Source of the DNA: Paracoccaceae bacterium | GTDB taxonomy: Bacteria; Pseudomonadota; Alphaproteobacteria; Rhodobacterales; Rhodobacteraceae | Assembly: GCA_021647745.1 (NCBI GenBank) | Contig: JAKIUB010000014.1 | Span: 1,214 to 65,213 of the forward strand | Reading direction: 5' to 3' | DNA: 64,000 bases | Part shown: piece after piece, positions 278-62,488 of the stretch | Layout: each line of letters opens with the position of its first letter | Position numbering within the stretch: position 1 is the first letter of the stretch | The notes under the pieces: model-generated | Told to the model about the DNA's origin: nothing | Seen by the model: the letters and a program-made list of their open reading frames with translations, nothing else | Database searches by the model: none | Program-made: the position numbers and the translations under genes

Positions 278-280
278 GCT

Positions 281-9092: not shown

Positions 9093-9107
9093 CAGGCTAT
9101 GCCCCTC

Positions 9108-9147: not shown

Positions 9148-9178
9148 GTAAGGTATAGTACGCGAAACCGCGGCTATA

Positions 9179-9382: not shown

Positions 9383-9491
9383 GATATTTCTCCCTGTGGT
9401 TCATCTTCCCAAGATGCACGGGCTTTCCCCGTCAAACCAGTCTTTTTTTGAGAACAACACAGCAAGTTGGCGGATTGTCGCGCAAATACTT

Positions 9492-9866: not shown

Positions 9867-9902
9867 ATCAGGCGCTCCTTTTCAGGGGCGCAGATGGCCC
9901 GT

Positions 9903-10190: not shown

Positions 10191-10223
10191 AGGTGCAAGA
10201 GGGGGGAGTTGTCGCAGACATAT

Positions 10224-11012: not shown

Positions 11013-11023
11013 AATTACGGGCC

Positions 11024-12556: not shown

Positions 12557-12618
12557 GGGGCCTCCCTGAGGGTTTTCATAGCAGCTTAGGCCAATAAAAG
12601 CTTATGTGAAAGCGAGGA

Positions 12619-12674
12619 TTGGCAAATTTGCAAATTTATGTATAGTCAGATCAGTATTTTTGCGAATTTGCGAA
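12619..12674. promoter_or_regulatory. candidate PccR operator: two pairs of adjacent palindromic TTTGCRAA octamers in the pccB/pccR divergent intergenic region
   Basis: TTGGCAAA-TTTGCAAA at 12619-12634 and TTTGCGAA-TTTGCGAA at 12659-12674, with pair starts 40 bp apart. TTTGCAAA is its own reverse complement. Located between the pccB start (12556) and the pccR start (12684). Confidence 0.5.
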
Positions 12675-12683
12675 AGGCACGTC

Positions 12684-14078
12684 ATGGCAACCCAAAAACT
12701 ATACGCCGGTGTAAAGCTGCGCGAAGTGCGCCAAAAGCGAGGATTGACCCAAAAGACCTTTGCCGAAAAACTGGGCATTTCACTTTCATACCTTAACCAG
12801 ATGGAAAACAACCACCGCCCGATTTCAGCCACCGTGGTGCTGGCCATGGCGCAGGAATTCGGCTTTGATGTCACCGAGCTTTCCGTGGCCGAGGCCGATC
12901 GCATGGTGGTGGACATGCGCGAAGCCCTCGCCGATCCGCTATTTGGCGACCCTCCGCCGCTGGAAGACCTGCAACTCACCGCCTCCAACGCACCAGCGCT
13001 GGCCCGCGCCTTTCTCAACCTGCACCGCGCTCACCGCCACGCCCAGGACCGCCTTGCTTCGTTAAACGAAGCCTTGGGCCATGAAAGCACCACCCTTGAC
13101 CCCCAACCATGGGAAGAGGTGCGCGATTTCTTCCATTATTGCGACAATTATATCGACGCCGTTGATCGCGCTGCCGAAAGTTTTGCCAGCCGCACGGGCC
13201 TTGGCAATGGCACCCATATAGCCCTGCTTGAGCGCCACCTTTCACGCCAACACGGGATAGAGCTGCGTTTTCAAAAAACCACCCTGCGCCAGTTTGAAAA
13301 CAATATCCTTGGCATAAGAGCAGATGCCCCCAAATCAACCCAAGCCTTTCAGATCGCCCATCAAATTGCGCTGATAGAGCATGAGGTCCTGCTGGAATCC
13401 ACGCTGGATTTTGCCAAATTCGTCACACCACAAGCCCGTGCGATTTGCAAAATCGGCCTCGCGAATTACTTTGCAGGTGCCGCCCTGCTGCCCTACGGCC
13501 TGTTTTTGGCCGCCGCGCAATCCCTGCGCCATGATCTCGACCTGCTGGCCGAACGATTCGGTGCCAGTATCGAGCAGGTGGCGCACAGGCTTTCAACCCT
13601 ACAACGGGCGGGGGCAAAAGGTGTGCCGTTTTTCTTTGTCCGTGTTGATCAGGCGGGCACCATTACCAAGCGCCATTCGGCCACGCGGCTGCAATTCGCC
13701 CGTTTTGGCGGAGCCTGCCCGCTGTGGAATGTGCATCGTGCCTTCGAAACCCCGACGCGATATCTGCGCCAACTGGCCGAAACGCCGGACGGACGGCAGT
13801 ATTTTTGCCTCGCCAAGGATATCACCAAGCCCGGCGGTGCTTATGGCGCGCCCAAGCCGCGCTTTGCCATTGGCCTTGGCTGCGAGGTGAGCCACGCCAA
13901 ATCCCTTGTCTATGCGGATGATTTTGATCTCGAAAATAGCGCTGCCTTTGAGCCAATCGGCATTTCCTGCCGAATTTGCGAGCGCAAAACCTGCCACCAG
14001 CGCGCGGTGCCGCCACTGGCCAAACCGCTGCATATCAACCCGATGCAGCGCGGCACCCTCCCCTATGAAATTGGTTGA
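12684..14078 (+). CDS. pccR: short-chain fatty acyl-CoA regulator family transcription factor (XRE HTH + ImmA/IrrE-like domain + Cys-rich C-terminal domain)
   Basis: MATQKLYAGVKLREVRQKRGLTQKTFAEKLGISLSYLNQMENNHRPIS is an XRE-type HTH. Long C-terminal extension. Divergent from pccB, as for R. sphaeroides PccR. Start set to the ATG at 12684 (M27 of the track ORF). Confidence 0.85.
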   Translation: MATQKLYAGVKLREVRQKRGLTQKTFAEKLGISLSYLNQMENNHRPISATVVLAMAQEFGFDVTELSVAEADRMVVDMREALADPLFGDPPPLEDLQLTASNAPALARAFLNLHRAHRHAQDRLASLNEALGHESTTLDPQPWEEVRDFFHYCDNYIDAVDRAAESFASRTGLGNGTHIALLERHLSRQHGIELRFQKTTLRQFENNILGIRADAPKSTQAFQIAHQIALIEHEVLLESTLDFAKFVTPQARAICKIGLANYFAGAALLPYGLFLAAAQSLRHDLDLLAERFGASIEQVAHRLSTLQRAGAKGVPFFFVRVDQAGTITKRHSATRLQFARFGGACPLWNVHRAFETPTRYLRQLAETPDGRQYFCLAKDITKPGGAYGAPKPRFAIGLGCEVSHAKSLVYADDFDLENSAAFEPIGISCRICERKTCHQRAVPPLAKPLHINPMQRGTLPYEIG

Positions 14079-14644: not shown

Positions 14645-15994
14645 TCACTCGGGCTTGATAAGCCCCGAAAACCCGGCCACCGCCACTAGGCTGAAAAACC
14701 AGCCAAGCGCAATGTGCGCCCACAGATAGGTGCGGGCGGCAATGCCGCTAATGCCGTGGCGGGCATCGGGAATCCACGCATCCTGCATTTCAAGGTCAAC
14801 AATCGGCAGCAGGGTATCGGCTGAATAGATAAACGGGTTAAAAATAGGATAGCTTTGCCCCGGCTCGCTGAGCAGATAGCACCATTTTTGCGAAGCCGCA
14901 TCCGCGCAGCCCATCCATGCTTGTGATTGCCACACCAGCAAAGAGCCGGGTTTTACCGCGCCGGCAAGATCAGCCAGTATAAAAACCAGCATCCCGAAAA
15001 GCATCAGCCCGGCCAGCCAGATGATAGAAAGCGAAGGCCGGTGGCCGTATCCGGCGCTGACCTTTAGCAGCCAGTTCCAGCCCTTGCGCCACCAAGGCGG
15101 GTTTTGCGCGGCGCGTTGCAGGCGTTCTTTTTCGATCATCACCTCGCGCGCATCTTCGCGGTGCCCCGTTTCACGCAGCACCTTGGCCAGTTGCTCATAA
15201 GGCTGCGGGCTAAAACCACGGGCGTGTTTGATCTTGGCCAGCCATTCAAGGCGGGTCTTGGCATCCAGCGGAACGCCCTCACCAAGAATGGACCCATAGC
15301 GAAACCGATCAATATAAATGCTTTCCGCCGCGCTTGGCCAACATTCCGCTGCATCACACAGCGCCGCAACCGACGCCCCGGCAAGGCTGATATCCCCGTT
15401 TATTTCAACGCCCTTCCGCAGAAAAAACCCGCCCTTGACCACCAGCCCATCAGCAATAAAAGCATATCCATGCGGCTGGCCATCCGCGCCCGATGAGGCG
15501 TTGAACTTTGCACCATCGCATTCAAGCCCCCCACCCAGCTTTGCCCCAACCAGCCGCACCACGCCTTTGACCTCAACCTCGCGCAGGGAAACACTACCCT
15601 TGGTCTCCAGCTGGTCAGCCTTCAGCCCCTGTGGCAGGTATGACCCATTCAAAAGCAGGTTTTGCATTTTGGCGCTTCGAAAAACCGGCGCGCTGTCAAA
15701 CCGGCAGTCAAACAGCGCCAAATCACCGGGCAAGGTGCAGCCATTCAGATCAAGCACATCTTTGATATGCGCACCTTTAATCCGCAAACCCTTTTCATGC
15801 AGGCGGCAGCTATCGCAACCGCCCAGCGCCAGATAGCGGATGAATGCTGCGCGCACCGTATAATCATCATCCCGCTCAGGGGACAGCAGGTCGTGGTGAA
15901 TAGTGATATCTTCACCGCTATCCAGCTCAGCAACAATTTGCTGCTCCGCTTTGAACAGCTCTCCAAAATCTTCAAGCTTGCGCAGTGCTTTCAT
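14645..15994 (-). CDS. membrane protein with an N-terminal pentapeptide-like beta-helix repeat region and a C-terminal multi-pass membrane domain
   Basis: Start set to the ATG at 15992-15994 (MKALRKL), preceded by GGAGGCAAG. Repeat-like segments include LDLNGCTLPGDLALFDCRF, LLLNGSYLPQGLKADQLETKGSVSLREVEVKGVVRLVGAKLGGGLECDGAKF and ADGLVVKGGFFLRKGVEINGDISLAGASV. Hydrophobic helices lie near the C-terminus (SIIWLAGLMLFGMLVFILADL; WAHIALGWFFSLVAVAGFSGL). Confidence 0.7.
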   Translation of the reverse strand: MKALRKLEDFGELFKAEQQIVAELDSGEDITIHHDLLSPERDDDYTVRAAFIRYLALGGCDSCRLHEKGLRIKGAHIKDVLDLNGCTLPGDLALFDCRFDSAPVFRSAKMQNLLLNGSYLPQGLKADQLETKGSVSLREVEVKGVVRLVGAKLGGGLECDGAKFNASSGADGQPHGYAFIADGLVVKGGFFLRKGVEINGDISLAGASVAALCDAAECWPSAAESIYIDRFRYGSILGEGVPLDAKTRLEWLAKIKHARGFSPQPYEQLAKVLRETGHREDAREVMIEKERLQRAAQNPPWWRKGWNWLLKVSAGYGHRPSLSIIWLAGLMLFGMLVFILADLAGAVKPGSLLVWQSQAWMGCADAASQKWCYLLSEPGQSYPIFNPFIYSADTLLPIVDLEMQDAWIPDARHGISGIAARTYLWAHIALGWFFSLVAVAGFSGLIKPE

Positions 15995-16027
15995 CTTGCC
16001 TCCTGTAGGGTCGGGCCTCACCTCACC

Positions 16028-16684
16028 TTAATCATCTCCATCAATCAACAGTTGCATCACCCGTGAGGCCAGCCGCAAGCTGTGGGTCGGGTCATCCGCT
16101 GCCACCGGCATGCTGGCGTCATAGGCACAGCGAATCACAGCGGCAATTGGCGGGCGCACGATGGCCATGTTGTTAGCTTCAATAATCCCTATGGGTGATT
16201 TCAGCAAAAACGCGCTCTCCGACCACAGCAAAATCGAGCGCGCCATCTGGTCGGTGGCCAGCGCCTGCACCGAAAGCTTGGCCATTTCAGCATCCACCTT
16301 GATCAGCAGGATGCACATTTTAATGCCACCTTGCTCGTCAAAGGCAAAGTGGCGATACTGGTTTGCCCCCGCGCGGTTAAGCTGGCCAACCAGCCCCTCC
16401 AGCCCCGGCATCATTTTATCGAGGTCCGGCACCTCGGCTATTTCCTCCCATTTCGAGCAGAAAAACACCAGAAAATTCGCGCCCAGCTCGGGGTCCATTT
16501 CGACCAGTTTCATATTGGCAATACCCGCCACGGCGGCAAAAGCCTCCTTGATGGCATCTAGCGATTTATCGTCAGTGCCAAAAACCACCGGCGCAATCGG
16601 GCGGCCCCAGCGGGCAAAGCGGTATTGGTTATCATGGCTGAAAAGCGCCTCGATCTGGCGCGCGTCAAAACCGTCATTAATCAT
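16028..16684 (-). CDS. hypothetical protein (218 aa) immediately downstream of ruvB
   Basis: Track ORF 16028-16942 trimmed to the ATG at 16682-16684 (MINDGFDARQIEALF...), one nt after the ruvB stop (16686-16688). The N-terminal extension overlaps ruvB and is Arg/Trp/Cys-rich. No family recognised with confidence. Confidence 0.6.
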   Translation of the reverse strand: MINDGFDARQIEALFSHDNQYRFARWGRPIAPVVFGTDDKSLDAIKEAFAAVAGIANMKLVEMDPELGANFLVFFCSKWEEIAEVPDLDKMMPGLEGLVGQLNRAGANQYRHFAFDEQGGIKMCILLIKVDAEMAKLSVQALATDQMARSILLWSESAFLLKSPIGIIEANNMAIVRPPIAAVIRCAYDASMPVAADDPTHSLRLASRVMQLLIDGDD

Positions 16685-16685
16685 A

Positions 16686-17702
16686 TTAGTCTCCAAAAAG
16701 ATCATCCGCGCGCGGGGCCGCCAGCCCGAGGTGTTTCCACGCTTTGGCCGCCAGCATCCGCCCGCGCGGGGTGCGTTGTATAAGGCCTTGCTGCAACAGA
16801 AAAGGCTCGATGACCTCCTCAATAGCATCCCTTGCCTCCGATAGCGCTGCGGCAATTGTTTCCACCCCCACGGGGCCGCCGCCGTAGTTTTCGGCCAGCA
16901 GTTTAAGGTAGCGGCGGTCCGCACTGTCCAGCCCCAGATCATCGACCCCGAGGCGCGTCAGCGCGATATTGGCGATCTCTTCGGTGACCTTGCCATTGCC
17001 CTGCACGATGGCAAAATCAACCACCCGGCGCAAAAGCCGCCCCGCCACACGGGGGGTGCCACGGGCGCGGCGCGCAATTTCCATCGCGCCGTTGGGGGTG
17101 GCGTCAGCCTTCATCAGGCGGGCAGCACGGGTGACGATCTGGATAAGTTCTTCGGTGTTATAAAACTCAAGGCGGGTCGGGATGCCAAAACGGTCCCGCA
17201 AGGGCGTGGTCAGCAGGCCAAGGCGGGTGGTGGCCCCGACCAAGGTAAACGGCTGCAAATCAATCCGCACCGTGCGCGCAGCCGGGCCTTCGCCGATCAC
17301 CAGATCCAGCTCGAAATCCTCCAGCGCAGGATAAAGGATTTCCTCCACCGCCGGATTCATACGGTGGATTTCGTCAATGAACAGCACATCGCGCTCATCC
17401 AGATTGGTCAGAATAGCGGCAAGATCCCCGGCCTTGGCCAGCACCGGCCCGCTGGTCATACGAAAGTTCACCCCAAGCTCGCGGCTGATAATCTGCGCGA
17501 GGGTGGTTTTGCCCAGCCCCGGCGGGCCGTAAAACAGCGTGTGGTCCATCGCCTGCCCGCGCCGCTTGGCGCTCTCGATAAACACGGCCAAATTTGCCCG
17601 CGCCTCGGCCTGCCCGATGAATTCATCCAGCACTTGCGGGCGCAGGGCGCGGTCGGCGTCTTGGGGCTGCTCTTCGGGGCGCAGGGTTTGGTCAGGTTCC
17701 AT
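16686..17702 (-). CDS. ruvB: Holliday junction branch migration DNA helicase RuvB
   Basis: [59 protein letters not shown]..., with the Walker A motif. Confidence 0.98.
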
Positions 17703-18867: not shown

Positions 18868-19077
18868 GTGCCTGCTCCTTTATGTTTTTCAACACCTAGC
18901 ACGAAACAGGAACAAACACCAAGCCAAAACCCATATGATTTGCGCCGTGTGCGGTTTGGATGTTTTAACGGTGTAGCGAGGCCTACATGCCTTATACCCG
19001 CCGGGCCTTTTCCCGGCAATGGGGGCGCCAGCCTGCACCGGCCTCCATGCTCGGGCCGCGATTATGGCCGATCAGGC

Positions 19078-19680
19078 TCATGCGTCAAAGTCCTTCAGCC
19101 GTGCGACATAGCGCGCCAATGTGTCGATCTCGAGGTTGACAGCATCTCCCGCCTTGACGCTGTGCCATGTTGTGTGCGCTTTGGTGTGGGGGATGATATT
19201 CACCCCGAAGCGGCAGCCCTCTACATCATTAACCGTCAGCGATGTGCCATTGAGCGCCACCGACCCTTTGGGCGCAATAAACCGCGCCAGCGCAGCCGGT
19301 GCCTCGAATTCAAAGCGCGTGCTTTCACCTTCATCCCGGGTGGAGAGCACCTGCGCCACCCCGTCCACATGCCCCGATACGATATGCCCGCCCAGCTCGT
19401 CCCCCAGCTTCAGCGCCCGTTCGAGGTTGAGCTTTGTGCCCACAGGCCAGGCGGTATTTGCAGTAAGGATATTGGTTTTCCCCAGGCTTTCCGCAGAAAT
19501 ATCCACATCAAACCAGCTTTCACCCTTATCGACTACAGTAAGGCAAATGCCGTCACAGGCGATCGAAGCGCCGATATCCACCCCGCCCGTTTCATAGCGC
19601 GTGCCGATCCGCACATGCAGGTCTCCGCGCATTTCAACCTGCAAAACCTCGCCAATATCGGTAATAATTCCGGTAAACAT
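19078..19680 (-). CDS. ribE: riboflavin synthase
   Basis: MFTGIITDIGEV...SIACDGICLTVV...GGHIVSGHVDG...SVALNGTSLTVN shows the internal two-barrel duplication typical of riboflavin synthase. Confidence 0.95.
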   Translation of the reverse strand: MFTGIITDIGEVLQVEMRGDLHVRIGTRYETGGVDIGASIACDGICLTVVDKGESWFDVDISAESLGKTNILTANTAWPVGTKLNLERALKLGDELGGHIVSGHVDGVAQVLSTRDEGESTRFEFEAPAALARFIAPKGSVALNGTSLTVNDVEGCRFGVNIIPHTKAHTTWHSVKAGDAVNLEIDTLARYVARLKDFDA

Positions 19681-19768
19681 TTTTTGCCCTCACAGCCTTT
19701 TTCTGCCCCTTGGTAGCAAGCGATCTGCGCCGCGGCAAGGCATGGGCGTATATTGGTTGTGAGACTCG

Positions 19769-40542: not shown

Positions 40543-40717
40543 GCCAGCCAAAAATATGAGCCTTTAGGCTGTAAACAATGCAGCCACCCTCCAATCGACA
40601 TCTGTTGCTAGTGCAACACATGCGCTCTTGATTGGGCGATGGCCTCGCTGCGCTCGGCGGATATTCCCGCGACCAAACCGCCTGATCACCACAAATTTAG
40701 CCTATTTGAGACGATTT

Positions 40718-40749
40718 CCCTTGAAGCCTGACAAATAAACCCGAAGTTA
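40718..40749 (+). promoter_or_regulatory. candidate sigma32 (RpoH)-type promoter upstream of clpA
   Basis: cccTTGAAg (CTTGAA at 40720-40725), a 14-nt spacer, then CCCGAAGTTA (40740-40749). Resembles the enterobacterial CTTGAA-N13-17-CCCCATNT consensus. About 60 nt upstream of the clpA ATG. Pattern match only. Confidence 0.25.
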
Positions 40750-40811
40750 AAAGGTAAGCATTAGGCTGCGTTTTGTGCAGCTGCATTTTGAATTCGGGCT
40801 AGGAGGGCAAT

Positions 40812-43127
40812 ATGCCATCATTTTCCACCACCCTTGAAGAGGCTATCCATAAAGCGCTGAGCCTCGCAAACGAGCGCCGCCACGAGCTGGCAACGTTGGA
40901 GCACCTGCTCTTGGCGCTGGTAGACGAGCCAGAGGCGCGCAAGGTAATGACCGCCTGCGCTGTTGATATGGACAAGCTCAAACGGCAGCTGACACGGTTC
41001 ATAGATAACGATCTTGATTCTCTGGTATCCGAGATTGAAGGCACCGAAGCCGCACCAACCACCGGCTTTCAGCGTGTGATCCAGCGCGCAGCGATCCATG
41101 TGCAAAGCTCCGGCCATGCCGAGGTAACCGGAGCAAATGTGCTGGTCGCGATCTTTACCGAGCGCGAAAGCCACGCCGCCTATTACCTGCAACAACAAGA
41201 CATGACCCGCTATGACGCGGTCAATTTTATCAGCCACGGGGTGGCAAAAGATCCGGCTTATAACGAGCATGTGCCATTGCAAGGCGCTGGCGATCTGGCC
41301 GATGACGTAACCCCTGGCGAGAAAAAAGAGACCGCGCTACAAAAATATTGTGATGACCTGAACGCCAAGGCCCGCGCTGGCGAGGTCGACCCGTTGATCG
41401 GCCGCCAGCACGAGGTAGATCGCTGCATTCAGGTGCTGTGTCGCCGCCGCAAGAATAACCCCATTCTAGTGGGTGATCCGGGCGTGGGCAAAACCGCCAT
41501 CGCGGAAGGGCTGGCGCGCAAAATCGTGGATGAAGAAGTGCCGAAGGTGCTTTCGGAAACCACAATATTCTCGCTGGATATGGGCGCATTGCTGGCCGGC
41601 ACCCGCTATCGCGGTGATTTCGAGGAGCGGCTGAAAGCGGTAATGAAAGAGATGGAGGAGCATGATAATGCCGTGCTTTTCATTGACGAAATTCATACGG
41701 TGATTGGCGCGGGTGCGACCTCTGGCGGGGCGATGGATGCGTCTAATTTGCTCAAGCCTGCGCTTCAAGGCGGCAAGCTGCGCTGCATGGGTTCAACCAC
41801 CTATAAGGAATATCGCCAGCATTTCGAAAAAGATCGCGCGCTGGCGCGGCGCTTCCAGAAGATCGACGTAAAAGAGCCAAGCATTCCGGATGCCATCAAA
41901 ATCCTGATGGGGCTGAAGCCCTATTTTGAAGAGCATCACGATATCCGCTATACCAATGACGGCATCAAAACCGCCGTTGATCTGGCCGCGCGCTATATCA
42001 ATGATCGCAAGCTGCCCGATAGCGCAATTGACGTGATCGACGAAGCTGGCGCTGCGCAAATGCTGGTGGCTGAAAGCAAGCGGCGCAAAACCATTGGCAC
42101 CAAGGATATTGAGGCCGTAGTAGCCAAAATCGCCCGCATTCCGCCCAAAAGCGTATCCAAAGATGATAGCGAGGTGCTGCGCGACCTTGAAAAAAGTCTG
42201 AAAAGGGTGGTGTTCGGGCAGGATGATGCGATTACGGCGCTGGCCAGCTCGATCAAGCTGGCGCGCGCGGGCCTGCGCGAGCCGGAAAAGCCGATCGGGA
42301 ATTATCTTTTTGCCGGGCCTACGGGCGTGGGCAAAACCGAGGTCGCCAAGCAATTGGCTGATGTTTTGGGCGTGGAGCTTTTGCGCTTTGATATGTCGGA
42401 ATATATGGAAAAACACGCGGTTAGCCGCTTGATCGGCGCGCCTCCGGGCTATGTCGGCTTTGATCAGGGCGGATTGCTGACGGACGGGGTCGACCAAAAC
42501 CCGCATTGTGTGCTGCTGCTGGACGAGATGGAAAAGGCGCATCCCGATGTGTTTAATATCCTGCTGCAAGTGATGGATCACGGCAAGCTGACCGACCATA
42601 ACGGCAAAGCGATTGATTTTCGCAATGTAGTGCTGATCATGACCAGCAATGCGGGCGCCGCCGAGCAGGCAAAATCGGCCATCGGCTTTGGCGATACCAA
42701 GCGGGTGGGCGAAGATACCGCCGCCGTCGAGCGCACCTTTACGCCGGAATTTCGCAATCGCCTCGATGCGGTGATCAGCTTTAGCTCGCTTCCGCGCGAG
42801 GTGATCCTGCAGGTGGTGGAAAAATTCGTGCTTCAGCTTGAGGCGCAATTGATGGATCGAAATGTAACCATCGAGCTGACCGAAGCGGCGGCGAACTGGC
42901 TTTCCAAAAAAGGCTATGATGATAAAATGGGGGCGCGGCCATTGGGGCGCACCATTCAGGAATACATCAAAAAGCCGCTGGCGGAGGAGCTGCTATTTGG
43001 CAAGCTTGTCAAAGGCGGCTCGGTGCGGGTCGAGGTCAAGGACGGGAAAATCCATCTGGAAATTCTGGAGCCGGAAAAGCTTCGGATTTCCACCCCGAAA
43101 AAACCGCCAATGCTGACAACCGAATAA
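40812..43127 (+). CDS. clpA: ATP-dependent Clp protease ATP-binding subunit ClpA
   Basis: 771 aa. Clp N-domain (MPSFSTTLEEAIHKALSLANERRHELATLEHLLLAL) and two AAA+ modules (GDPGVGKTAIAEGLA; GPTGVGKTEVAKQLA). No ClpB-type middle coiled coil. Confidence 0.97.
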   Translation: MPSFSTTLEEAIHKALSLANERRHELATLEHLLLALVDEPEARKVMTACAVDMDKLKRQLTRFIDNDLDSLVSEIEGTEAAPTTGFQRVIQRAAIHVQSSGHAEVTGANVLVAIFTERESHAAYYLQQQDMTRYDAVNFISHGVAKDPAYNEHVPLQGAGDLADDVTPGEKKETALQKYCDDLNAKARAGEVDPLIGRQHEVDRCIQVLCRRRKNNPILVGDPGVGKTAIAEGLARKIVDEEVPKVLSETTIFSLDMGALLAGTRYRGDFEERLKAVMKEMEEHDNAVLFIDEIHTVIGAGATSGGAMDASNLLKPALQGGKLRCMGSTTYKEYRQHFEKDRALARRFQKIDVKEPSIPDAIKILMGLKPYFEEHHDIRYTNDGIKTAVDLAARYINDRKLPDSAIDVIDEAGAAQMLVAESKRRKTIGTKDIEAVVAKIARIPPKSVSKDDSEVLRDLEKSLKRVVFGQDDAITALASSIKLARAGLREPEKPIGNYLFAGPTGVGKTEVAKQLADVLGVELLRFDMSEYMEKHAVSRLIGAPPGYVGFDQGGLLTDGVDQNPHCVLLLDEMEKAHPDVFNILLQVMDHGKLTDHNGKAIDFRNVVLIMTSNAGAAEQAKSAIGFGDTKRVGEDTAAVERTFTPEFRNRLDAVISFSSLPREVILQVVEKFVLQLEAQLMDRNVTIELTEAAANWLSKKGYDDKMGARPLGRTIQEYIKKPLAEELLFGKLVKGGSVRVEVKDGKIHLEILEPEKLRISTPKKPPMLTTE

Positions 43128-43141
43128 ACAGTAGCAAGCGC

Positions 43142-45067
43142 TTATCGCTCTGTCAGCTTCAACTCGATGCGCCGGTTGGCAGCCCGCGCTTCGGGGCTGT
43201 TTCCTTGGCGAAGGGGTTGAAACTGCCCGTAGCCGTTAGCCGCAAGTCGACGGGGCGAAAAACCCTCGACATCTATTAAATAGCGCACCACCGAAAGCGC
43301 ACGGGCCTGTGACAGCGCCCAGTTTGCATCCACCTGACCGGTGGTATCTGTATGGCCTTCTACCTGCAATATCCAGTTGATCTCGGGCGGGATATCCCCG
43401 GCGACATCGCGCAGAACCGATGCGACATCGGACATCTGCTTTTGCCCTTCATGGCCAAGATTTGACGAGCCGGGTTCAAATAACACCTCCGAAGAGAAAA
43501 CAAACCGGTCACCAACGATTTGCAGCTCTTCGCGCCCGCCAAGTATCGCACGCATCCGGCCAAAAAATTCGGAGCGAAAGGAGCGCAAGTCATTAGCCTC
43601 GGCCTTCAGGCGCTCGGCTTCAGCCGCCAGAAGGTCGCGCTCCCGGCTCTCGGCATCGGCCCGCGCCCGCTCCTCGACAGCCACCCTTGCCAGTGCTGTA
43701 TTCAACTGGGAGCCGAGGTTTTCAATGCGGATATTAGCCTCGCTATCGGCTTGGGCCGAAGCATCGAGCAAGCCCTGAAGCTGGTTAAGTTCGGCGCGCA
43801 AGGCGGCTGTTTGCCGGTTGAGCAGCGCGATCCGGCGCTGGGCCTCCGCAGACTGGCCCTTTTCCGCAGCCAGCAAACGCGCGGCCTCGTCCAGAGCGGC
43901 CTGCTGGCTGGTGATGATTTCGGCAGGATCCTGCCCCTCCAGCTCGCGGCGGGCGGCACGCAGGGCAGCAAGTTGGGTCAGGGTATCTTCGGCGCGCCGA
44001 CGCTCGGCCTCCAGCGACAGGGTCATGGCAGTCAGTTCGGCATCGGCATTGGCGAGGCGCGTACGTAGCGCCTCGGCGGCGGCAGCCTCGGCAAGCTGGC
44101 CACGCTCGGCGGCACTAAGCGCTGAAGCCCGCTCGGCGAGCGCCAGCTCGGCGGCGGCAATCCGGGCATCCTGATCCTCCAACAGCGCTTCAAGTCGGGA
44201 TTTTTCTTCGGCAGTCTGGAGGGCGGTGGTGACAGAGATTCGGGCCTCGGCCAATTGTTGCAGCACCGCTATACGCGCCAGTTGTTCAGTGTTCAACTCC
44301 TCCTCCAGCACCCGTTTAGCCTCGGTGAGTGCCGTGATCTCGGCGGCGCGCTCGCTGCTGGCGCTTTGGGCCGCGCGCTTGGCTGCTTCGGCCAGAAACA
44401 GCGCCTGCGTAGCGCTGGCGATCTGCTCCTGCATGGCCGAAACTTGCGCCGAGCGATCCGTCTGCCCGGTTTCCAGCTCGGCAATCATGGCGCGCAAGGC
44501 CTCGGTGCGGGCCGCGGCCAGCCTTGCGGCTTCGGCTTCGGCATCTATCTCTTGGCGGGCGGCGGCCAGCGCCAGCTCGGCGGCGGCCTTGGCGTCCATT
44601 TCGGCCAGCACAGCTGATTGCGCTTCAGCGACAGCATCACCCAAATCGCGGTTCTGGGTGATCAGGGTAGCGATTTGCGCCTCGAAACCGGTGATCTTTT
44701 CGGCACTTTCCTCAATCTCTTGCTGCAATTCCTGCCGCTGGCGGGTAAGCAAGGCAATGAGGGCGGTCCGGGCGGCATCCTCGTTTCGGGCCTCGGTCAG
44801 GGCACTGTTGAGTTCGCCCAGCTCCCGCTCCAACCCGCGCGAGCGGTTTTGCTCCAGCCCGAGCACATCGGCCAGCCCGGCAACCTGCTCGCTCAGCGCG
44901 ACCAGCTCGTCATCCTGATCGCTGATCGTCTCGCTCAGCACGAACTGCACGATCATAAAAATACTGATAACAAAGAACAGCACCAACAAAAGCGCTGTCA
45001 TCGCGTCTACAAACCCGGGCCAGATATTGGGGGGTTCGCGCCCGTTTCCACGTCTGCCGAGGGCCAT
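43142..45067 (-). CDS. MotB/OmpA-like peptidoglycan-binding protein with an N-terminal MotB-type TM helix and a ~420-aa coiled-coil spacer
   Basis: 641 aa. The N-terminus NIWPGFVDAMTALLLVLFFVISIF carries the conserved Asp of MotB/TolR/ExbD-type plugs. Residues about 60-490 are A/E/L/R/Q-rich and heptad-like. The C-terminus FVFSSEVLFEPGSSNL...LQVEGHTDTTG...SQARALSVVRYL...NRRIELKL is an OmpA_C-like domain. Confidence 0.85.
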   Translation of the reverse strand: MALGRRGNGREPPNIWPGFVDAMTALLLVLFFVISIFMIVQFVLSETISDQDDELVALSEQVAGLADVLGLEQNRSRGLERELGELNSALTEARNEDAARTALIALLTRQRQELQQEIEESAEKITGFEAQIATLITQNRDLGDAVAEAQSAVLAEMDAKAAAELALAAARQEIDAEAEAARLAAARTEALRAMIAELETGQTDRSAQVSAMQEQIASATQALFLAEAAKRAAQSASSERAAEITALTEAKRVLEEELNTEQLARIAVLQQLAEARISVTTALQTAEEKSRLEALLEDQDARIAAAELALAERASALSAAERGQLAEAAAAEALRTRLANADAELTAMTLSLEAERRRAEDTLTQLAALRAARRELEGQDPAEIITSQQAALDEAARLLAAEKGQSAEAQRRIALLNRQTAALRAELNQLQGLLDASAQADSEANIRIENLGSQLNTALARVAVEERARADAESRERDLLAAEAERLKAEANDLRSFRSEFFGRMRAILGGREELQIVGDRFVFSSEVLFEPGSSNLGHEGQKQMSDVASVLRDVAGDIPPEINWILQVEGHTDTTGQVDANWALSQARALSVVRYLIDVEGFSPRRLAANGYGQFQPLRQGNSPEARAANRRIELKLTER

Positions 45068-46249
45068 TTAGCTGCCCCGCGCGTTGGCCAGTGCCAAAAT
45101 GCTCTGGGCCAAGGTGGACATATCGGCGCGCAGATCGCTCAGGGTTTCCTGCCGACCCACGGACATTTCTTCCAGCACCCTTAAAAGCTGCACATCTATG
45201 TTGCGCAGCCGCGAGCGCGCTTCACTATCAAGCAGGCCGCTGCTTTCCTCGCGGTCGCGCAAGATGCGGGTCATCTCCGCTTGCGAGCTGGCAATGCGCT
45301 CGAACACCTCTTCATCAAAGGCTGCGCTGCCGCCCGGTGCCGCGGCCAGCCCCTGCATTGCCACAGCCAGCTGGCTCAGGGCTTCTTCGGTATTCTGGCG
45401 CGATTGCTCGCCGCGCAGGCTGACATCTTTCAGGGTTTCGATCTGCATCGCGGTTTGCTCCATAAAACCGTGGAGCGCTGCAAGATCACTGCCCCCGCTG
45501 CCTTCGCTCTCGCCAACAAGGCTGAGCTTGGTAATGGAGGACAGCCACTCTTCCAGCTCCATATAAAACCGGTTTTGCCCGTGTGAGGCAAACAGCTCCA
45601 GCAAGCCAACAACCAGCGAGCCGGCCAAACCAAGTAGCGAGGAAGCAAAAGCCGTGCCCATACCGCCCAGCTGATCCTCAAGCCCGGACATCAGGTTTTT
45701 AAACACTTCCGAGGCCGTCTGCCCTTCCTGCGGGGCGAGGCTGCGGATGGTATCCACCACCGCCGGCACCGTGGTCGCCAGCCCGTAAAACGTGCCGAGC
45801 AGCCCGAGAAAGATTAGCAGGCTGGCAATATATCGGGTGATATCACGCAATTCGTCCAGCCTTGTGCCAACCGAATCAAGGATAGAGCGGCTGGAGGTGG
45901 AGGTGATGGATTTGCGGGCACGGCTATCGCGCAGCAGCGCCTCAAGATTGGCCAGAATGCGCGGTGCCCGCACAAATTCGTGCCCCGGACGGTCAAGCAC
46001 AAAGCCCTTGATCCAGCGCACCGCCACCAAAAGAGAGATGATTTGCCAAAAACAGGCCAGTACCCCGATGGCAAAAACCGCGATAATCACCCCGTTAAGA
46101 TAGGGAGAAACGATGAATATCCGCGACATCGACGGCAGCGCCCCCACCGCGCCCACCATGACCAAACCCAATATAACAAGCATAATAAAGGCTTGGCGCG
46201 TCGGTCGGGAAAATCTCGGCTCGCGCTTTGAATCAATGACAAGCTTCAT
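45068..46249 (-). CDS. MotA/TolQ/ExbB proton-channel family protein with a ~160-aa helical C-terminal tail
   Basis: 393 aa. Two N-terminal TM helices and a cytoplasmic loop. Then LLIFLGLLGTFYGL and GGMGTAFASSLLGLAGSLVVGLLELF, the signature helices of MotA_ExbB channels. Its stop codon (45068-45070) directly abuts the ATG of the MotB-like gene. Confidence 0.85.
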   Translation of the reverse strand: MKLVIDSKREPRFSRPTRQAFIMLVILGLVMVGAVGALPSMSRIFIVSPYLNGVIIAVFAIGVLACFWQIISLLVAVRWIKGFVLDRPGHEFVRAPRILANLEALLRDSRARKSITSTSSRSILDSVGTRLDELRDITRYIASLLIFLGLLGTFYGLATTVPAVVDTIRSLAPQEGQTASEVFKNLMSGLEDQLGGMGTAFASSLLGLAGSLVVGLLELFASHGQNRFYMELEEWLSSITKLSLVGESEGSGGSDLAALHGFMEQTAMQIETLKDVSLRGEQSRQNTEEALSQLAVAMQGLAAAPGGSAAFDEEVFERIASSQAEMTRILRDREESSGLLDSEARSRLRNIDVQLLRVLEEMSVGRQETLSDLRADMSTLAQSILALANARGS

Positions 46250-46253
46250 TCGG

Positions 46254-46362
46254 CTTATTCACTCCTGCAAAATAATCAATACCGGATACTACACCCGCCA
46301 AAGGATTTGGCCAGCATATATCAATAGATTCCCGCAAAATCCCTTCATATTCGGTGAATAAG
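46254..46362. repeat. 9-bp inverted repeat, arm starts 100 bp apart, spanning most of the divergent MotA-like/SPFH promoter region
   Basis: ttcgg-CTTATTCAC at 46249-46262 and ttcgg-GTGAATAAG at 46349-46362. The 9-mers are exact reverse complements and each is preceded by the same ttcgg. Confidence 0.6.
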
Positions 46363-59432: not shown

Positions 59433-59927
59433 TCAAAAATATCTGCCAAATTCATCAAAGACCTGTCGGTAGATCGCCCGCTTGAAGGGGATGATCTTGT
59501 CCAGCACCTCGTCAGCCTCCATCCATTTCCATTCCGAAAACTCGGGGGCTTCGGTATGGATATTGATGCAACTATCCGGCCCGAGAAACCGAAGTAAAAA
59601 CCAGCGCTGCTTCTGGCCGCGAAACCGCGCTACACCGTTCTTTTTGGTAAAAAGGCGCTGCGCCACTTCAGGGGGGAAATCATATTTCAACCACTCCCGA
59701 CTATGGGCCACCACCTTGACAGCATCCGCCAAAACACCGGTCTCTTCCGCCAGTTCGCGCAGCGCGGCGGCCTCGGGCATCTCGCCGGTATCTATCCCGC
59801 CTTGTGGCATCTGCCACGCATCCGGCATATCAAGCCGTCGACCGACAAAAACCTTGCCTTCAGGATTAAGCAATACCAGCCCCGCATTGGGGCGATAGGG
59901 CAGCGCGGCAAATTCACTGTTCTTCAT
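59433..59927 (-). CDS. rppH: RNA pyrophosphohydrolase (NUDIX)
   Basis: ...YRPNAGLVLLNPEGKVFVGRR...WQMPQGGIDTGEMPEAAALRELAEETG... Nudix box, plus ...GQKQRWFLLRF... Confidence 0.93.
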   Translation of the reverse strand: MKNSEFAALPYRPNAGLVLLNPEGKVFVGRRLDMPDAWQMPQGGIDTGEMPEAAALRELAEETGVLADAVKVVAHSREWLKYDFPPEVAQRLFTKKNGVARFRGQKQRWFLLRFLGPDSCINIHTEAPEFSEWKWMEADEVLDKIIPFKRAIYRQVFDEFGRYF

Positions 59928-60026
59928 GGTAGGCTTTCACGGGCATTTCAATGTCAGGGGGCCAAAACCCTGTCAGCCAATGCAAAAAAGGCACTGACTG
60001 CGGGTAAAGGTGTGGCCCCCTTGTTG

Positions 60027-61355
60027 CTACTGGGAACCAAGAACGGTGATACCCTTGATCAGGTCAATCGCATAGGCGAGCTGGTTATCCTGTCCTTTGA
60101 GTTTGGCGGCTGCCTCTTGCTCGGCGCGCTCGGCATCCACCTGTTTGCGCTCGTCCTCGGTGAGGGAGTCATTCTCGATCGAGCCGCGCAGGTCAGCTTC
60201 CGAGCGCCGGTCCGGCTGGTCTTCGGCTTCTGGATCCTCAGGAACAGGCGGAACATATTCGACAATAATATCCGGCTCGACACCGAGGTTCTGGATGGAG
60301 CGGCCCGAGGGGGTATAATAGCGCGCGGTGGTCAGGCGGATGGCGCCATTTCCCTGCATCGGCATGATCGTCTGGACCGACCCCTTGCCAAAACTCTTGG
60401 TGCCGACAATCACAGCCCGCCGGTGATCTTGCAGTGCGCCGGCCACAATCTCGGAGGCCGAAGCCGAACCGCCATTGATCAGCACAACCAAAGGCTTGCC
60501 CAATGTCAGGTCGCCCTCTTCAGCGCTATAGCGGCTGGAATCAAGGTCCGAGCGGCCCCGTGTCGATACGATCTCGCCCTCCTCCAGAAAGGCGTCCGAA
60601 ATACTGATCGCCTCGCTAAGCAACCCGCCAGGGTTGTTGCGCAGATCCAGCACAAAACCGTCAATGTTTTCAAGACCACCAGCGGCTTCGATTTCACGGG
60701 CGATGCCATCTGCCATATTGGGGTAGCTCTGCTCGTTAAATGTGGTCACGCGCATCACAATTGTGCTGCCTTCGGTGCGCACCCGGGCGGCGGTGAGCTT
60801 GATGATCGCGCGGGTCAAGGTTACCTCGAACGGCTCTTGGTCACGGTCCCGCACAATGGTGAGGGTAATATCGGAGCCAACAGGGCCGCGCATCATGTCT
60901 ACCGCTTCATTCAAGGTCAGGCCAAGAGTTTGCTCGCCATTAACCGCAGTAATAAAATCACCTGATTGCAGGCCGGCCTTGTCTGCCGGTGTGTCGTCCA
61001 TCGGCGAGACGATCTTCACCCAGCCCTCTTCCTGCGTCACCTCGATGCCCAACCCGCCAAATTCACCACGGGTGTCGAATTGCATTTCTTCATAGTTTCG
61101 CGGGGCGAGGTAGGATGAATGCGGGTCAAGCGAGACCAGCATTCCGTTGATCGCGGCGCGGATCAGTTCCTGATCATCAACCTCGTCCACATAGGAGGCG
61201 CGTATCCGCTCGAAAATATCGCCAAACAGGTCAAGCTGCTCGTAAGTGTTGGTTTCCGGCGCAGCTTCCTGTGCGAAACTCGGCAGTGCAAGCTGGGTAC
61301 TGGCAATCATGCCTGCCATAATGCCACCTGTGGCTGCCATCCAATATTTCTTCAT
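60027..61355 (-). CDS. ctpA: carboxy-terminal processing protease (S41 family)
   Basis: Signal peptide, PDZ segment (GGLGIEVTQEEGWVKIVSPMDDTPADKAGLQSGDFITAVNG) and S41 core (VLDLRNNPGGLL...VLINGGSASASEIVAGALQD...GTKSFGKGSVQ). Start moved to the ATG at 61353-61355. Confidence 0.93.
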   Translation of the reverse strand: MKKYWMAATGGIMAGMIASTQLALPSFAQEAAPETNTYEQLDLFGDIFERIRASYVDEVDDQELIRAAINGMLVSLDPHSSYLAPRNYEEMQFDTRGEFGGLGIEVTQEEGWVKIVSPMDDTPADKAGLQSGDFITAVNGEQTLGLTLNEAVDMMRGPVGSDITLTIVRDRDQEPFEVTLTRAIIKLTAARVRTEGSTIVMRVTTFNEQSYPNMADGIAREIEAAGGLENIDGFVLDLRNNPGGLLSEAISISDAFLEEGEIVSTRGRSDLDSSRYSAEEGDLTLGKPLVVLINGGSASASEIVAGALQDHRRAVIVGTKSFGKGSVQTIMPMQGNGAIRLTTARYYTPSGRSIQNLGVEPDIIVEYVPPVPEDPEAEDQPDRRSEADLRGSIENDSLTEDERKQVDAERAEQEAAAKLKGQDNQLAYAIDLIKGITVLGSQ

Positions 61356-61369
61356 AAGAACAATCCTGT

Positions 61370-62488
61370 CTAGTTTACAGCGAACCAAGTTAAAGGGTCC
61401 ACCGGTATTCCATTTTCCCGAATCTCTATATAGAGGCTTTCGGCGCCCTTGTCATTTTCGCCTGTCGATTCCGCAAGAAACTCGGCAGAATCCGGTATTT
61501 CCCCCCCAAGAAGCCCCAAAGCGGCGCCAGATTCAAGCACATCTCCCGTGTTCACGTAAACTTGTCCAAAACCCGCGTATATTTGCAGCTGTTCGGGGGC
61601 CGGCTCAAGGATAACAACCTGACCATATTCCAGAAGCCCTCCGGCAAACCTCACAATACCGGCCTGCGGCGCCAGTACCAGCGAAAGCGCTGGCGCAGTT
61701 AGCAAAATGCCGGGCTGCCGAATTCCTATCCCGTTAGGCTGATTATAACTGCGCACAATAGTTCCACTGACCGGCAAAGGCAATGTGCCGCGCAAGGTCA
61801 AAAGTTGCGTTTCACTAAGCGGTGCCGCGCCGGAAAGCCGGGAGCCAAGCGCCGTGGCCAGCCCGCCGAGGTCTTCGCTCGCGCGTACCAGCTGCTCAAG
61901 ATTGTCCAGCAAATTTGCGGGGTTTTCGGGTGCTGGCTGGTCCGCCCTTATAGCCGCAGCCAGCTCGCGGCGGGCCTGTTTCAGGGTTTCCAGCGCGGTG
62001 CGAATATTGGCCAATGCTTCATCGTGCAGGGCATTCAGGGCTTCAATAGTCGCCAGCTCCGCACGCAGTTTCTCCGCTTGCGCACGAAGGGTCGGGGTAA
62101 TAGCCGAGAGGATCATCGCCGCACGGGCCGAAGCCGTTGCGCCAGCCGGATGCAAAATACGAAAAGCCACCGGTGTATTTTCGAGCGCGGCAAGTGTGGC
62201 CAGCAAGTTACCCATCTCGCCACGATTTTGGGCGATGGCGTTTTGTTTTTGCTTGGCAACCATGATCGAGGCACGCAAGGCAAGGCGCAGAGAACCAAGG
62301 CCGGTTTCAAGGCTACGAATAGTGTTGGAGAGAGCCGCCACACGGTCTTCATTCGCCTCCGCAGCAGCCAGCGCTGTCGTCGCCATTCGGATATCTTCAG
62401 AGGCGGCACGCAGCGCCAGCACAGGATCGCTCTGGGCGACTGCCGGACTGGTCAACAAAACCAGTAAAAAAAACAGAAACTTCCTCAA
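61370..62488 (-). CDS. EnvC-like murein hydrolase activator (coiled coil + degenerate LytM/M23 domain)
   Basis: Signal peptide RKFLFFLLVLLTSPAVAQ, a ~230-aa A/L/E/R coiled coil and a C-terminal LytM-like domain. TTG start at 62486-62488 overlaps the gpmI stop (TTGA). No nearby ATG preserves the signal peptide. Confidence 0.8.
   Translation of the reverse strand: MRKFLFFLLVLLTSPAVAQSDPVLALRAASEDIRMATTALAAAEANEDRVAALSNTIRSLETGLGSLRLALRASIMVAKQKQNAIAQNRGEMGNLLATLAALENTPVAFRILHPAGATASARAAMILSAITPTLRAQAEKLRAELATIEALNALHDEALANIRTALETLKQARRELAAAIRADQPAPENPANLLDNLEQLVRASEDLGGLATALGSRLSGAAPLSETQLLTLRGTLPLPVSGTIVRSYNQPNGIGIRQPGILLTAPALSLVLAPQAGIVRFAGGLLEYGQVVILEPAPEQLQIYAGFGQVYVNTGDVLESGAALGLLGGEIPDSAEFLAESTGENDKGAESLYIEIRENGIPVDPLTWFAVN

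Follow-up and report, generated by a model that had tools for sequence, protein, structure and literature searches.

What does a pair of motor-like envelope proteins do when none of the genes around it belongs to a flagellum, a Tol-Pal, TonB/ExbD or gliding system, or a Zorya defence system? The question is raised by a stretch of 64,000 nucleotides from a marine Paracoccaceae bacterium (contig JAKIUB010000014.1, positions 1,214 to 65,213), here called the window, in which two minus-strand genes encode a putative ion-channel subunit of 393 amino acids (A) and a partner of 641 amino acids (B), the latter joining a single transmembrane (TM) helix to an OmpA-like domain through a long coiled-coil rod. 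Ion-driven motors of the 5:2 type are known to power flagella, Ton/Tol transport, gliding and the type IX secretion system, and Zorya defence, and each newly understood member has revealed a new coupling of membrane energy to work elsewhere in the cell. The analysis reported here places the pair in a distinct 5:2-type motor family nearest to ZorAB, already catalogued under uninformative or misleading names, with one probable orthologue for which descriptive phenotypes have been published. On balance, though by no wide measure, we favour the view that the pair is a housekeeping, ZorAB-like, peptidoglycan-tethered proton motor with a role at the envelope, the pole or in division.

The two genes are packed head to tail: TAA, which ends A (45070-45068), and ATG, which opens B (45067-45065), are immediate neighbours, with neither spacer nor overlap. 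An earlier note on this DNA had described the pair as an orphan MotA/MotB-type stator with a spacer of about 420 residues in its MotB-like subunit; the gene coordinates, the two protein lengths and the abutment given there were exact, and all the peptide motifs that it quoted are present in the two translations, where FLGLLGTFYGL, GMGTAFASSLLGLAGSLVVG, WPGFVDAMTALLLVLFFV, VEGHTDTTG and NRRIELKL were found.

The A subunit was placed by its predicted structure. When modelled by AlphaFold2 (AF2) with a 50-sequence alignment, it reached a predicted local distance difference test (pLDDT) score of 81.9, with values above 90 through residues ~11-240, and the top 48 matches returned by Foldseek against the PDB were all A subunits of 5:2 motors. 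ExbB, TolQ and ZorA came first (TMt score up to 0.57, probability ~1.0), and flagellar MotA occupied ranks 48 and 50. Model and hydrophobic segments together indicate four TM helices, a MotA-like count, and the loop between TM2 and TM3 is predicted to form a compact, ExbB-like cytoplasmic domain of ~60 residues. By sequence, the nearest relatives were found among ZorA models. The PADLOC ZorA1 model matched A at E 3.6e-11 over residues 135-299, a range extending into the C-terminal tail (model positions 105-249 of 683), and the same model matched all of 50 A relatives (best 1.3e-15), 47 of which were also matched by ZorA3. The only NCBIfam hit was again a weak ZorA match (ZorA_4, 17 bits against a cut-off of 500), the NCBIfam MotA, TolQ and ExbB models giving none.

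Judged by its modelled fold, A may be taken as settled among the A-type subunits of the 5:2 ion-driven motor superfamily. It is nearer by fold to ExbB, TolQ and ZorA than to flagellar MotA, and its nearest annotated sequence relatives are ZorA proteins. The broader proposal of an ion-driven envelope machine of the MotA/ExbB/TolQ-MotB superfamily thus gains support from the fold search; the label of a MotA/MotB-type stator was too specific, given this fold, the ZorA1 match in 50 of 50 relatives, and a B subunit to which the MotB_plug model gave no match.

Conservation in both subunits includes the putative channel residues. In an alignment of 50 diverse A relatives, 30-50% identical to window A, the TM3 motif FLGLLGTFxGL is conserved, with G149, L151, G152, T153, G156 and L157 invariant; the TM4 motif GMGTAFSSSLxGLAGSL is likewise conserved, with A200, F201, G207 and L208 invariant and S204 present in at least 90% of the sequences. 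A further motif, LRNID..RL.EE..GR....LR.E, is conserved across the family at the C-terminal end of the A tail, whose periodicity is weak (3.55 residues, a signal reached by 33 of 1000 shuffles). In B, the motif W-P-G-F-V-D at the TM helix is invariant in alignment A3, and WPGF.D was found in 143 measured homologues. The B motif D-A-M-T-A resembles D-F-M-T-A of E. coli MotB. The N-terminus of B consists of Arg-rich residues 1-15, followed by one hydrophobic helix and then by acidic residues, a distribution which argues for an N-in topology. The helix is taken as the Asp-bearing axle on the grounds of the architecture, of the invariance of its motif and of the strict pairing of B with a partner of ExbB/ZorA fold.

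In ZorA5B2, a proton-driven 5:2 motor, ZorB Asp26 faces ZorA Thr147 and Ser184 (PMC11946911). By motif position, A Thr153 and Ser204 would be the equivalents of that Thr/Ser pair. The invariance of Thr153 and of the B Asp, and the presence of Ser204 in at least 90% of the relatives, speak for the reading as a proton motor, in which these residues would take the part of those in ZorA and ZorB. They also bear on a static alternative, in which the pair would be a passive structural tether, that is, a staple or scaffold between inner membrane and peptidoglycan in which the channel features are relics. A long rod with a wall-binding domain is just what a tether needs; A is very divergent in sequence from all working motors, and the conserved proline of TM helices in ExbB, TolQ and MotA is seemingly absent from TM4 of A (GSLVLG). 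Yet relics would not be expected to keep the B Asp, A Thr153 and the TM3 G/L/T motif invariant, and Ser204 nearly so, at 30-50% identity, and a tether has no need for a five-subunit channel partner encoded strictly next to it in nearly every locus. We regard the tether as unlikely.

At the far end of B, the best PDB sequence matches of the C-terminus were the periplasmic domains of MotB and PomB (PomB being aligned from residue 473), and the OmpA motifs GHTD, LSxxRA and NRRIE are kept in all forms of B, so that peptidoglycan binding through this domain is probable, judging from the motifs. PADLOC ZorB matches to B were confined to the OmpA part. The whole protein belongs to NCBIfam NF006542 (PRK09039.1-1, 'peptidoglycan-binding protein'), which it matched with 596.1 bits against a cut-off of 388, the best stretch being 387-641; the sibling NCBIfam models of the NF006542 group are only ~343-350 residues long. 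A TM helix carrying an invariant Asp at one end and an OmpA-like domain at the other, as first described, are therefore both borne out (Table 1).

Between the two ends, B is built as a coiled coil. In residues 60-490, Ala accounts for 25%, Glu and Leu for 14% each, Arg for 10% and Gln for 8%, and only one of the 431 residues is Pro. The periodicity of L/I/V/M/F residues peaks at exactly 3.5 over these 431 residues, with a power of 2.09 compared with 0.38 ± 0.19 after shuffling, a value reached by 0 of 1000 shuffles; the heptad phase is therefore coherent over long distances. When the register was threaded through window B, uninterrupted heptads were obtained at 47-153, 164-260, 291-382 and 384-479, with L/I/V in 60% of the a positions and L/A in 64% of the d positions, a pattern typical of parallel dimers, which B may well form. 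A single-sequence AF2 model of B is helical over residues 16-508, at low confidence (pLDDT 57).

Variation among homologues was examined for the same periodicity. Gaps were collected from 148 unique full-length Rhodobacterales B homologues of 519-897 amino acids, by using 1678 close pairwise alignments, the pairs of which are not independent: 2343 of the 3127 gaps of at least 4 residues (75%) were multiples of seven, against ~14% expected, and lengths of 7, 14, 21, 28 and 35 were dominant. The distance between the anchors WPGF.D and RSEFF ranges from 165 to 732 residues, with 56 distinct values; taken modulo seven, these fall into classes of 9, 13, 0, 4, 25, 5 and 0 (chi-square p ~9e-11) and form ladders such as 466-473-...-515. 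A single strict register class between TM helix and neck, the latter being the distal portion of the rod, is ruled out by the three main classes. The populated classes differ by +1, +3 or +4 residues, and shifts of these sizes are tolerated in coiled coils as 'skip', 'stammer' and 'stutter' discontinuities. With respect to its closest relatives, window B carries indels of 21, 46 (= 42+4), +4/-3, +7 and -7 residues at five separate rod sites. Single uncompensated heptad indels scattered along the rod argue for a parallel homodimer, as a hairpin would need compensation in each arm.

Both periodicity and heptad-quantised indels sustain the earlier description of the spacer as an A/E/L/R/Q-rich, heptad-like coiled coil; its length of about 420 residues is not a fixed trait of the architecture. 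The B of Sinorhizobium meliloti has 342 amino acids, compared with which window B carries ~230 extra rod residues plus a 28-residue (four-heptad) insert breaking the neck, and the shortest rod, in a B of 328 amino acids (locus L067), has ~134 residues (~20 nm), against ~450 in the window. Across lineages the range is from ~134 to ~1,200 residues, about nine-fold, and the distal 60-100 rod residues, the neck, are kept in all forms. Read from these alignments, the long rod is a Rhodobacterales expansion, in heptad steps, of an ancestral rod of ~134 residues. No DNA tandem repeats were found in the window B gene, so none explains the expansion. Extreme forms were observed in locus L050, with a B of 1426 amino acids (~9200-13520), and, outside Rhodobacterales, in L070 (935 amino acids, 7216-10023), in which repeat units of the ERDRLL type are visible. 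These two expansions are independent, and the second lies outside Rhodobacterales, indicating that rod expansion is recurrent.

The rod of the window is, as had been noted, too long to stand upright: it would measure ~65-67 nm, compared with a gap of ~9 nm between membrane and wall in E. coli (PMC11946911). From these two values a shallow angle and a lateral anchoring point can be derived, and the rod exceeds also the width of the periplasm as a whole. The latter is roughly 25-30 nm.

The distribution of the family was analyzed in 74 loci, 61 from Rhodobacterales, probed only with the window's neighbour proteins, and 13 from other Alphaproteobacteria (Rhodospirillales-like and otherwise unclassified metagenome-assembled contigs, and S. 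meliloti). The two genes are adjacent in 60 of the 61 Rhodobacterales loci, the exception being a truncated contig, and in 12 of the 13 others. Within Rhodobacterales, clpA is convergent to the pair in 45 loci, and SPFH/NfeD genes are divergent from it in ~33. In 10 of the 13 other loci the upstream side of the pair carries a gene for inositol monophosphatase, in most cases with efp before it; an ABC exporter gene and rpmE are often near, and in one locus clpA and clpS lie downstream. S. meliloti has an annotated orthologous pair (UIJ94491.1, UIJ94490.1), with an A of 368 amino acids (41% identity, E 2e-49) and a B of 342 amino acids, 40-41% identical at both ends, and named cluster members place the family also in Hyphomicrobiaceae and Sphingomonadales. 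More than 8000 close matches to A were found in a collection clustered at 90%, and representative clusters number 2134 at E<=1e-3, 1177 at 1e-10 and 389 at 1e-30; a protein search with a divergent profile again yielded mostly Rhodobacterales, and a Rhodobacteraceae metagenome-assembled genome contains an A identical to that of the window. The pair is thus a core-genome family conserved across several alphaproteobacterial orders, and the conservation of core synteny across orders (clpA; efp, inositol monophosphatase, rpmE) indicates vertical inheritance.

Several arrangements were noted around these loci. In six of them (L065, L067, L069, L070, L072 and L073) thiE, efp and the inositol-monophosphatase gene lie upstream, and a gene for a ~600-residue ABC exporter (ABC_membrane + ABC_tran), rpmE, DUF1465 and DUF1192 lie downstream, which may reflect simple vertical synteny or a functional link of the exporter. 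In L072, A and a B-like gene (WPGFVD ... RSEFF) are ~5 kb apart on opposite strands, at 1-706 (-) and 6001-7179 (+), and A is followed by an ABC ATPase gene in place of B. A third gene is found directly 5' of A in six of the 13 non-Rhodobacterales loci (L062, L063, L064, L065, L069 and L070); its exported product starts with what resembles a signal peptide, continues with a long low-complexity linker rich in Pro and Ala, and is OmpA-like at its C-terminus (RRLSLSRALAVRTYL...), a layout recalling TonB or TolA beside their motors. Neither the window nor any of the 61 Rhodobacterales loci has this gene.

No flagellar genes were seen beside the pair in the 61 Rhodobacterales loci, nor among the called genes flanking it in the other 13, in which the nearest flagellar gene, one with a FlbT domain, lies ~7 kb away (L065). 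Tol/Ton genes, Zorya effector genes (ZorC, D, E, F, G) and defence genes were not found beside the pair in any of the 74 loci. The designation of the pair as an orphan therefore extends from the window to its orthologues, the surrounding genes being housekeeping ones in all of these loci. By tblastn, no copy of the pair was detected in 50,697 phage records, and 72,556 records filed as plasmids gave five matches only, all of them chromosomes of 3.5-4.6 Mb. PLSDB in fact holds whole chromosomes as plasmids, such as the 3.72-Mb 'pSymB' of S. meliloti Ak57 (L073, CP090106.1); the mislabelled chromosomes (H1-H5) carry ribosomal protein and purine biosynthesis genes.

These data weigh on the idea of a Zorya-like anti-phage sensor whose effectors would be encoded elsewhere in the genome. 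ZorA models are the best sequence matches family-wide, and the two systems have a common architecture, an A with a cytoplasmic helical tail and a B with a peptidoglycan-binding domain. Against this stand the NCBIfam ZorA score, far under its cut-off, the lack of ZorC-G or defence genes near the pair in the surveyed loci, and a core synteny, conserved across orders, which speaks for vertical inheritance, with no phage or true plasmid copy; moreover, the A tail has ~150 residues instead of ~500, and B has a long rod where ZorB has no linker. A defence role is, in our judgement, very improbable.

The literature offers little that bears directly on the family. No mechanistic study of it was found, and 'PRK09039' gave two unrelated mentions only. 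In the sections consulted, a 2025 survey devoted to MotAB and related non-flagellar systems gives the A/B family no separate treatment; non-flagellar B subunits are said there to have no homology to OmpA, which the A/B family, like ZorB, contradicts. The only experimental work found concerns the 'MotAB' proteins of Komagataeibacter hansenii, a very probable orthologue in a non-flagellated alphaproteobacterium. Its 'MotA' has 348 amino acids and four TM helices, and its 'MotB' 321 amino acids, with one TM helix and an OmpA domain (Jacek et al. 2019, PMC6570709), sizes which match the short-rod form. The published primers imply a MotA beginning with (M)TRPTTY and a MotB ending with EFRLTDR*, identical to the corresponding peptides of the family members P0293 and B_L069, respectively; on these peptides and on the architecture, orthology with the A/B family is very probable. 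GFP fusions were polar; on overexpression, cells became elongated or filamentous, colonies spread more and the cellulose network was looser, whereas disruption gave denser cellulose (PMC6570709). The earlier remark, that its author knew of no characterised function for this architecture, thus stands as far as mechanism is concerned; it does not stand for the family as such, since B belongs to NF006542/PRK09039 and phenotypes of the K. hansenii proteins are published.

Three further reports were considered. The ctrA and cckA mutants of Phaeobacter inhibens show a more than 12-fold increase in expression of an 'orphan second copy of motA' and a decrease for all flagellar genes (PMC11974857). This gene could not be tied to the A/B family; if it were the A orthologue, the cell cycle would control the family, in the opposite sense to flagella. 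The Rgs growth-pole proteins of S. meliloti were discarded as orthologues, as the paper describing them contains no MotA, MotB, OmpA or ExbB-type protein, and no matching gene is mentioned for the CenKR regulon of R. sphaeroides.

Automated annotation ('flagellar motor protein MotA', 'chemotaxis protein MotB') would make the pair a spare or specialised flagellar stator, paralogous to MotAB, and the MotA-like four-TM topology, the MotB/PomB-type C-terminal domain and the colony spreading raised by overexpression in K. hansenii all agree with it. A stator would not be expected in a non-flagellated genus such as Komagataeibacter, where the family is very probably present, nor would it be expected never to adjoin flagellar genes in the 74 loci, within the limits of the probing described above. 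Flagellar MotA appears only at the 48th and 50th places in the fold search, neither NCBIfam MotA nor MotB_plug is matched, the cytoplasmic loop of A (~60 residues) is compact and ExbB-like, and the motA and motB that emerged from a motility screen in P. inhibens were those of the flagellar cluster alone. Of all the readings weighed here, the stator is the one to which we give the least credit.

The same body of evidence is compatible with a periplasmic force transducer resembling Tol/Ton or GldLM, in which ion flow would turn or pull the B rod, or a partner carried by the A ring, the work being done on the wall, the outer membrane or a partner in the periplasm, and the A tail only holding or regulating the ring. 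By its core fold, A stands nearest to ExbB and TolQ; the Pro/Ala-linker OmpA-like gene upstream of A in six loci of other lineages is reminiscent of TonB and TolA; strong selection to keep the heptad register intact from one end of the rod to the other would suit an element of mechanical transmission; and the traits altered in K. hansenii are cell length and an extracellular polymer. Conversely, a canonical peptidoglycan-binding OmpA end with conserved motifs would immobilise the rod, the upstream gene is absent from the window and the 61 Rhodobacterales loci, and a nine-fold variation in rod length is hard to square with a target at a fixed distance. Such a transducer seems rather unlikely to us, without being negligible.

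For the housekeeping, peptidoglycan-tethered motor, which remains our favoured reading, we infer a scheme covering 5:2 stoichiometry, proton use, rotation, parallel dimer, peptidoglycan binding, rod geometry, output and role. Five A subunits, each with four TM helices, an ExbB-like domain and a tail of ~150 residues, would ring the two B TM helices. Protons passing via B Asp21 and A Thr153/Ser204 would make the A ring turn in steps around the B dimer; as the wall would hold B in place, it is the ring that would move. From the ring the two B chains would emerge in register, as a parallel two-stranded coiled coil of ~450 residues in this organism, with a MotB/PomB-type OmpA dimer at its end to grip peptidoglycan. 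Confined between inner membrane and wall, the rod would run at a shallow angle and anchor the motor at a distant lateral site. The output would be delivered by the conserved cytoplasmic tail of A, as in Zorya, or by a membrane partner encoded elsewhere, and the role would lie in envelope, pole or division homeostasis, not in motility or phage defence. The polar localisation, cell elongation and cellulose changes in K. hansenii, which has no flagellum, support such a role, given the very probable orthology.

A number of observations count against this scheme. At the level of A, the Pfam MotA_ExbB model (PF01618) scores 15.7 bits, below its 22.9 cut-off: the match that the earlier note had expected, and whose absence it had named as a ground for refutation, fails for the window protein itself and is rescued by 30 of 50 relatives, which match weakly (best E 2e-5), and by the fold search. 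The Foldseek E-values are modest (~1e-2), and sequence searches of the PDB with the single A sequence, the full family profile and a TM-core profile gave no significant match to a 5:2 motor, the full profile being uninformative because of coiled-coil noise from the tail. At the level of B, isolated N-termini match neither MotB_plug (PF13677) nor ExbD in Pfam even at E<=1, and an N-terminal profile gave no match to MotB, ZorB, ExbD or TolR in the PDB. As to the rod, the three main register classes mean that its two ends do not keep a strict angular phase, a coiled coil of such length yields to torsion and thus makes a poor reaction arm for a rotary motor, and the AF2 helix of B is broken at 93-95, 200-204, 283-285, 378-380 and 402-406, which could permit a fold-back. 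Finally, the orthology of the K. hansenii proteins rests on short terminal peptides and on architecture, and their phenotypes are overexpression-derived and indirect.

Table 1. Position of the A/B pair and its domains in the window, and of other genes mentioned in the text; residues are numbered within each protein.
Feature	Position	Strand	Description
A subunit gene, 393 amino acids	45068..46249	minus	Open reading frame; ExbB/TolQ/ZorA-fold channel subunit, four predicted TM helices and C-terminal helical tail
A membrane core, residues 17-239	45533..46201	minus	TM1-TM2, compact cytoplasmic domain, TM3 (FLGLLGT153F), TM4 (GMGTAFASS204L); core pLDDT >90
A cytoplasmic tail, residues 240-393	45071..45532	minus	Three predicted helices, 255-302, 309-337 and 342-392; pLDDT 65-75
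AGGAG Shine-Dalgarno-like element	46262..46266	minus	12 nucleotides 5' of the A start codon; read from sequence
B subunit gene, 641 amino acids	43142..45067	minus	Open reading frame; NCBIfam NF006542, Pfam OmpA; TM helix with Asp, coiled-coil rod, OmpA-like domain
B TM helix, residues 16-44 (WPGFVDAMTALLLVLFFVISIFMIVQFVL)	44936..45022	minus	Invariant Asp21 at 45005-45007
B periplasmic coiled-coil rod, residues ~47-505	43553..44929	minus	~65-67 nm if straight; from periodicity, heptad threading and heptad-quantised indels
Rod 'neck', residues ~410-505	43553..43840	minus	LLNRQ..ALRAEL..L..LLDAS...IENLGSQLNTALA...FRSEFFGR; conserved in all divergent B
B OmpA-like peptidoglycan-binding domain, residues 529-632	43172..43483	minus	MotB/PomB type; Pfam PF00691, 70 bits, E 1.7e-19
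Five Pfam-blank open reading frames	10224-11012 (-), 14645-16021 (-), 16028-16942 (-), 18868-19716 (+), 59703-60965 (+)		Pfam at E<=1
Upstream third gene (other loci)	L062 7240-8004; L065 6335-7960; L069 4664-5908; L070 4596-5930		Overlaps the A start in L062

In the window, the pair is flanked as had been reported, with clpA convergent to B and an SPFH/Band-7 gene and an NfeD gene divergent from A. The stop codons of clpA and B are 14 nucleotides apart (43127-43142), too close for each gene to have an intrinsic terminator of its own outside coding sequence, and a scan for promoters and terminators gave no more signals than expected from shuffles. Farther neighbours comprise genes for a methyltransferase, gloB, an EEP phosphatase, a weakly matched LysM protein, ChaC and DUF2125. 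When 43 large open reading frames of the window were scanned with Pfam, an ordinary core chromosome emerged (glyQ, methylmalonyl-CoA mutase, propionyl-CoA carboxylase, priA, ruvAB, F1-ATPase subunits, a Bat/MoxR cluster, capsule export, an XerC-like recombinase). In agreement with the earlier note, the 43 include no gene of a flagellum, of the Tol-Pal, TonB/ExbD or gliding systems or for a Zorya effector, and none encodes TonB, TolA, TolB or Pal.

Some other features of the window deserve a record. The gap of 270 nucleotides 5' of clpA (40543-40811) contains no listed open reading frame of at least 80 amino acids, and thus none that is clpS-like. A 372-residue protein (61370-62488, minus strand), encoded next to a phosphoglycerate mutase gene, carries a C-terminal M23 peptidase domain after a coiled-coil-like region, with weak matches to coiled-coil families at residues 129-214, in an EnvC-like layout, and a 404-residue protein (3672-4886, plus strand) contains a Hint_2 (Hedgehog/intein-like) domain (E 6e-49). 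Five open reading frames, of 262-458 amino acids, have no Pfam match at E<=1 except for one faint pentapeptide-repeat match in one of them. Two of the five sit just downstream of ruvAB, where ybgC and tolQRA are found in many proteobacteria.

The family is also of wider interest. Its similarity to the Zorya core prompts one to ask what task a 'domesticated' or ancestral ZorAB performs when no phage infects the cell, and the A/B pair could be the cellular ancestor from which Zorya sensors were recruited. In its most far-reaching form, the proposal would be of a so far unrecognised class of housekeeping 5:2 rotary motors, sister to ZorAB, whose continuous parallel coiled-coil rods, tuned in heptads from ~20 to more than 150 nm, would lie between inner membrane and wall. 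Powered by ions, such a machine would serve the envelope as a mechanosensor or 'winch' at poles or sites of division, and through the A tail it would pass displacements of the wall relative to the membrane on to the cytoplasm; we offer this extension tentatively, as doubtful in its entirety. The heptad-quantised rod, with its roughly nine-fold range, amounts to a natural experiment on rod length and register in a wall-anchored motor, and the family is conserved in the genetically tractable Sinorhizobium and, very probably, in Komagataeibacter. Automated names such as 'flagellar motor protein MotA', 'chemotaxis protein MotB' and 'biopolymer transporter ExbB' are misleading for its members and are corrected by the present assignment.

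The pair can be set beside several known systems. With GldLM, a 5:2-type motor, no match of sequence or fold was seen in these searches; GldM forms a long dimeric periplasmic arm with globular domains which reaches the outer membrane and has no peptidoglycan-binding OmpA domain. ExbBD and TolQR provide the best structural matches of the A core (TMt 0.45-0.57) and share the compact cytoplasmic domain and the LGLLGT-type motif of the inner helix, whereas the TM helices of ExbB and TolQ number three and are not followed by a long C-terminal tail, and the periplasmic fold of ExbD and TolR is not that of OmpA, which window B contains. The Ton and Tol systems, moreover, work with TonB or TolA encoded nearby; the window has no such gene, although other lineages have the upstream Pro-rich OmpA-like one.

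With MotAB and PomAB the pair has in common a four-TM A, the Asp of the B TM helix, the MotB/PomB-type OmpA C-terminal domain and the adjacency of the genes. It differs from them in its non-flagellar context, in its very probable presence in a non-flagellated genus, in the compact ExbB-like cytoplasmic domain of A and in giving no MotB plug match; the linker, predicted as a rigid coiled coil, is 3-20 times longer than the flexible one of MotB. Window B is a formal member of NF006542/PRK09039, a naming model without function, in which siblings of ~343-350 amino acids, such as that of S. meliloti, would represent the ancestral short-rod form; with respect to these, it has ~300 more rod residues. 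The K. hansenii MotAB proteins resemble the A/B family in being an orphan pair, with a four-TM A and a one-TM B with an OmpA domain, but carry a short rod.

The closest parallel is with ZorAB. ZorA has three TM helices, whereas four are predicted for window A; its tail of ~500 residues projects 70 nm into the cytoplasm (PMC11946911), against ~150 residues, in three helices, in the window. The wall-binding dimer of ZorB is fused directly to the TM helices without a linker (PMC11946911), where the B proteins of the A/B family have coiled coils of 134 to ~1,200 residues. Zorya is accompanied by effector genes (ZorC/D and others) and found in defence islands, whereas the A/B pair has no effectors and belongs to a vertically inherited core genome. 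Beyond these differences, the pair shares with ZorAB (PDB 8QYD, 8VVN) the predicted fold of a 5:2-motor A subunit, a putatively equivalent Thr/Ser pair together with the Asp of the B helix, a cytoplasmic A tail and a peptidoglycan-binding B end.

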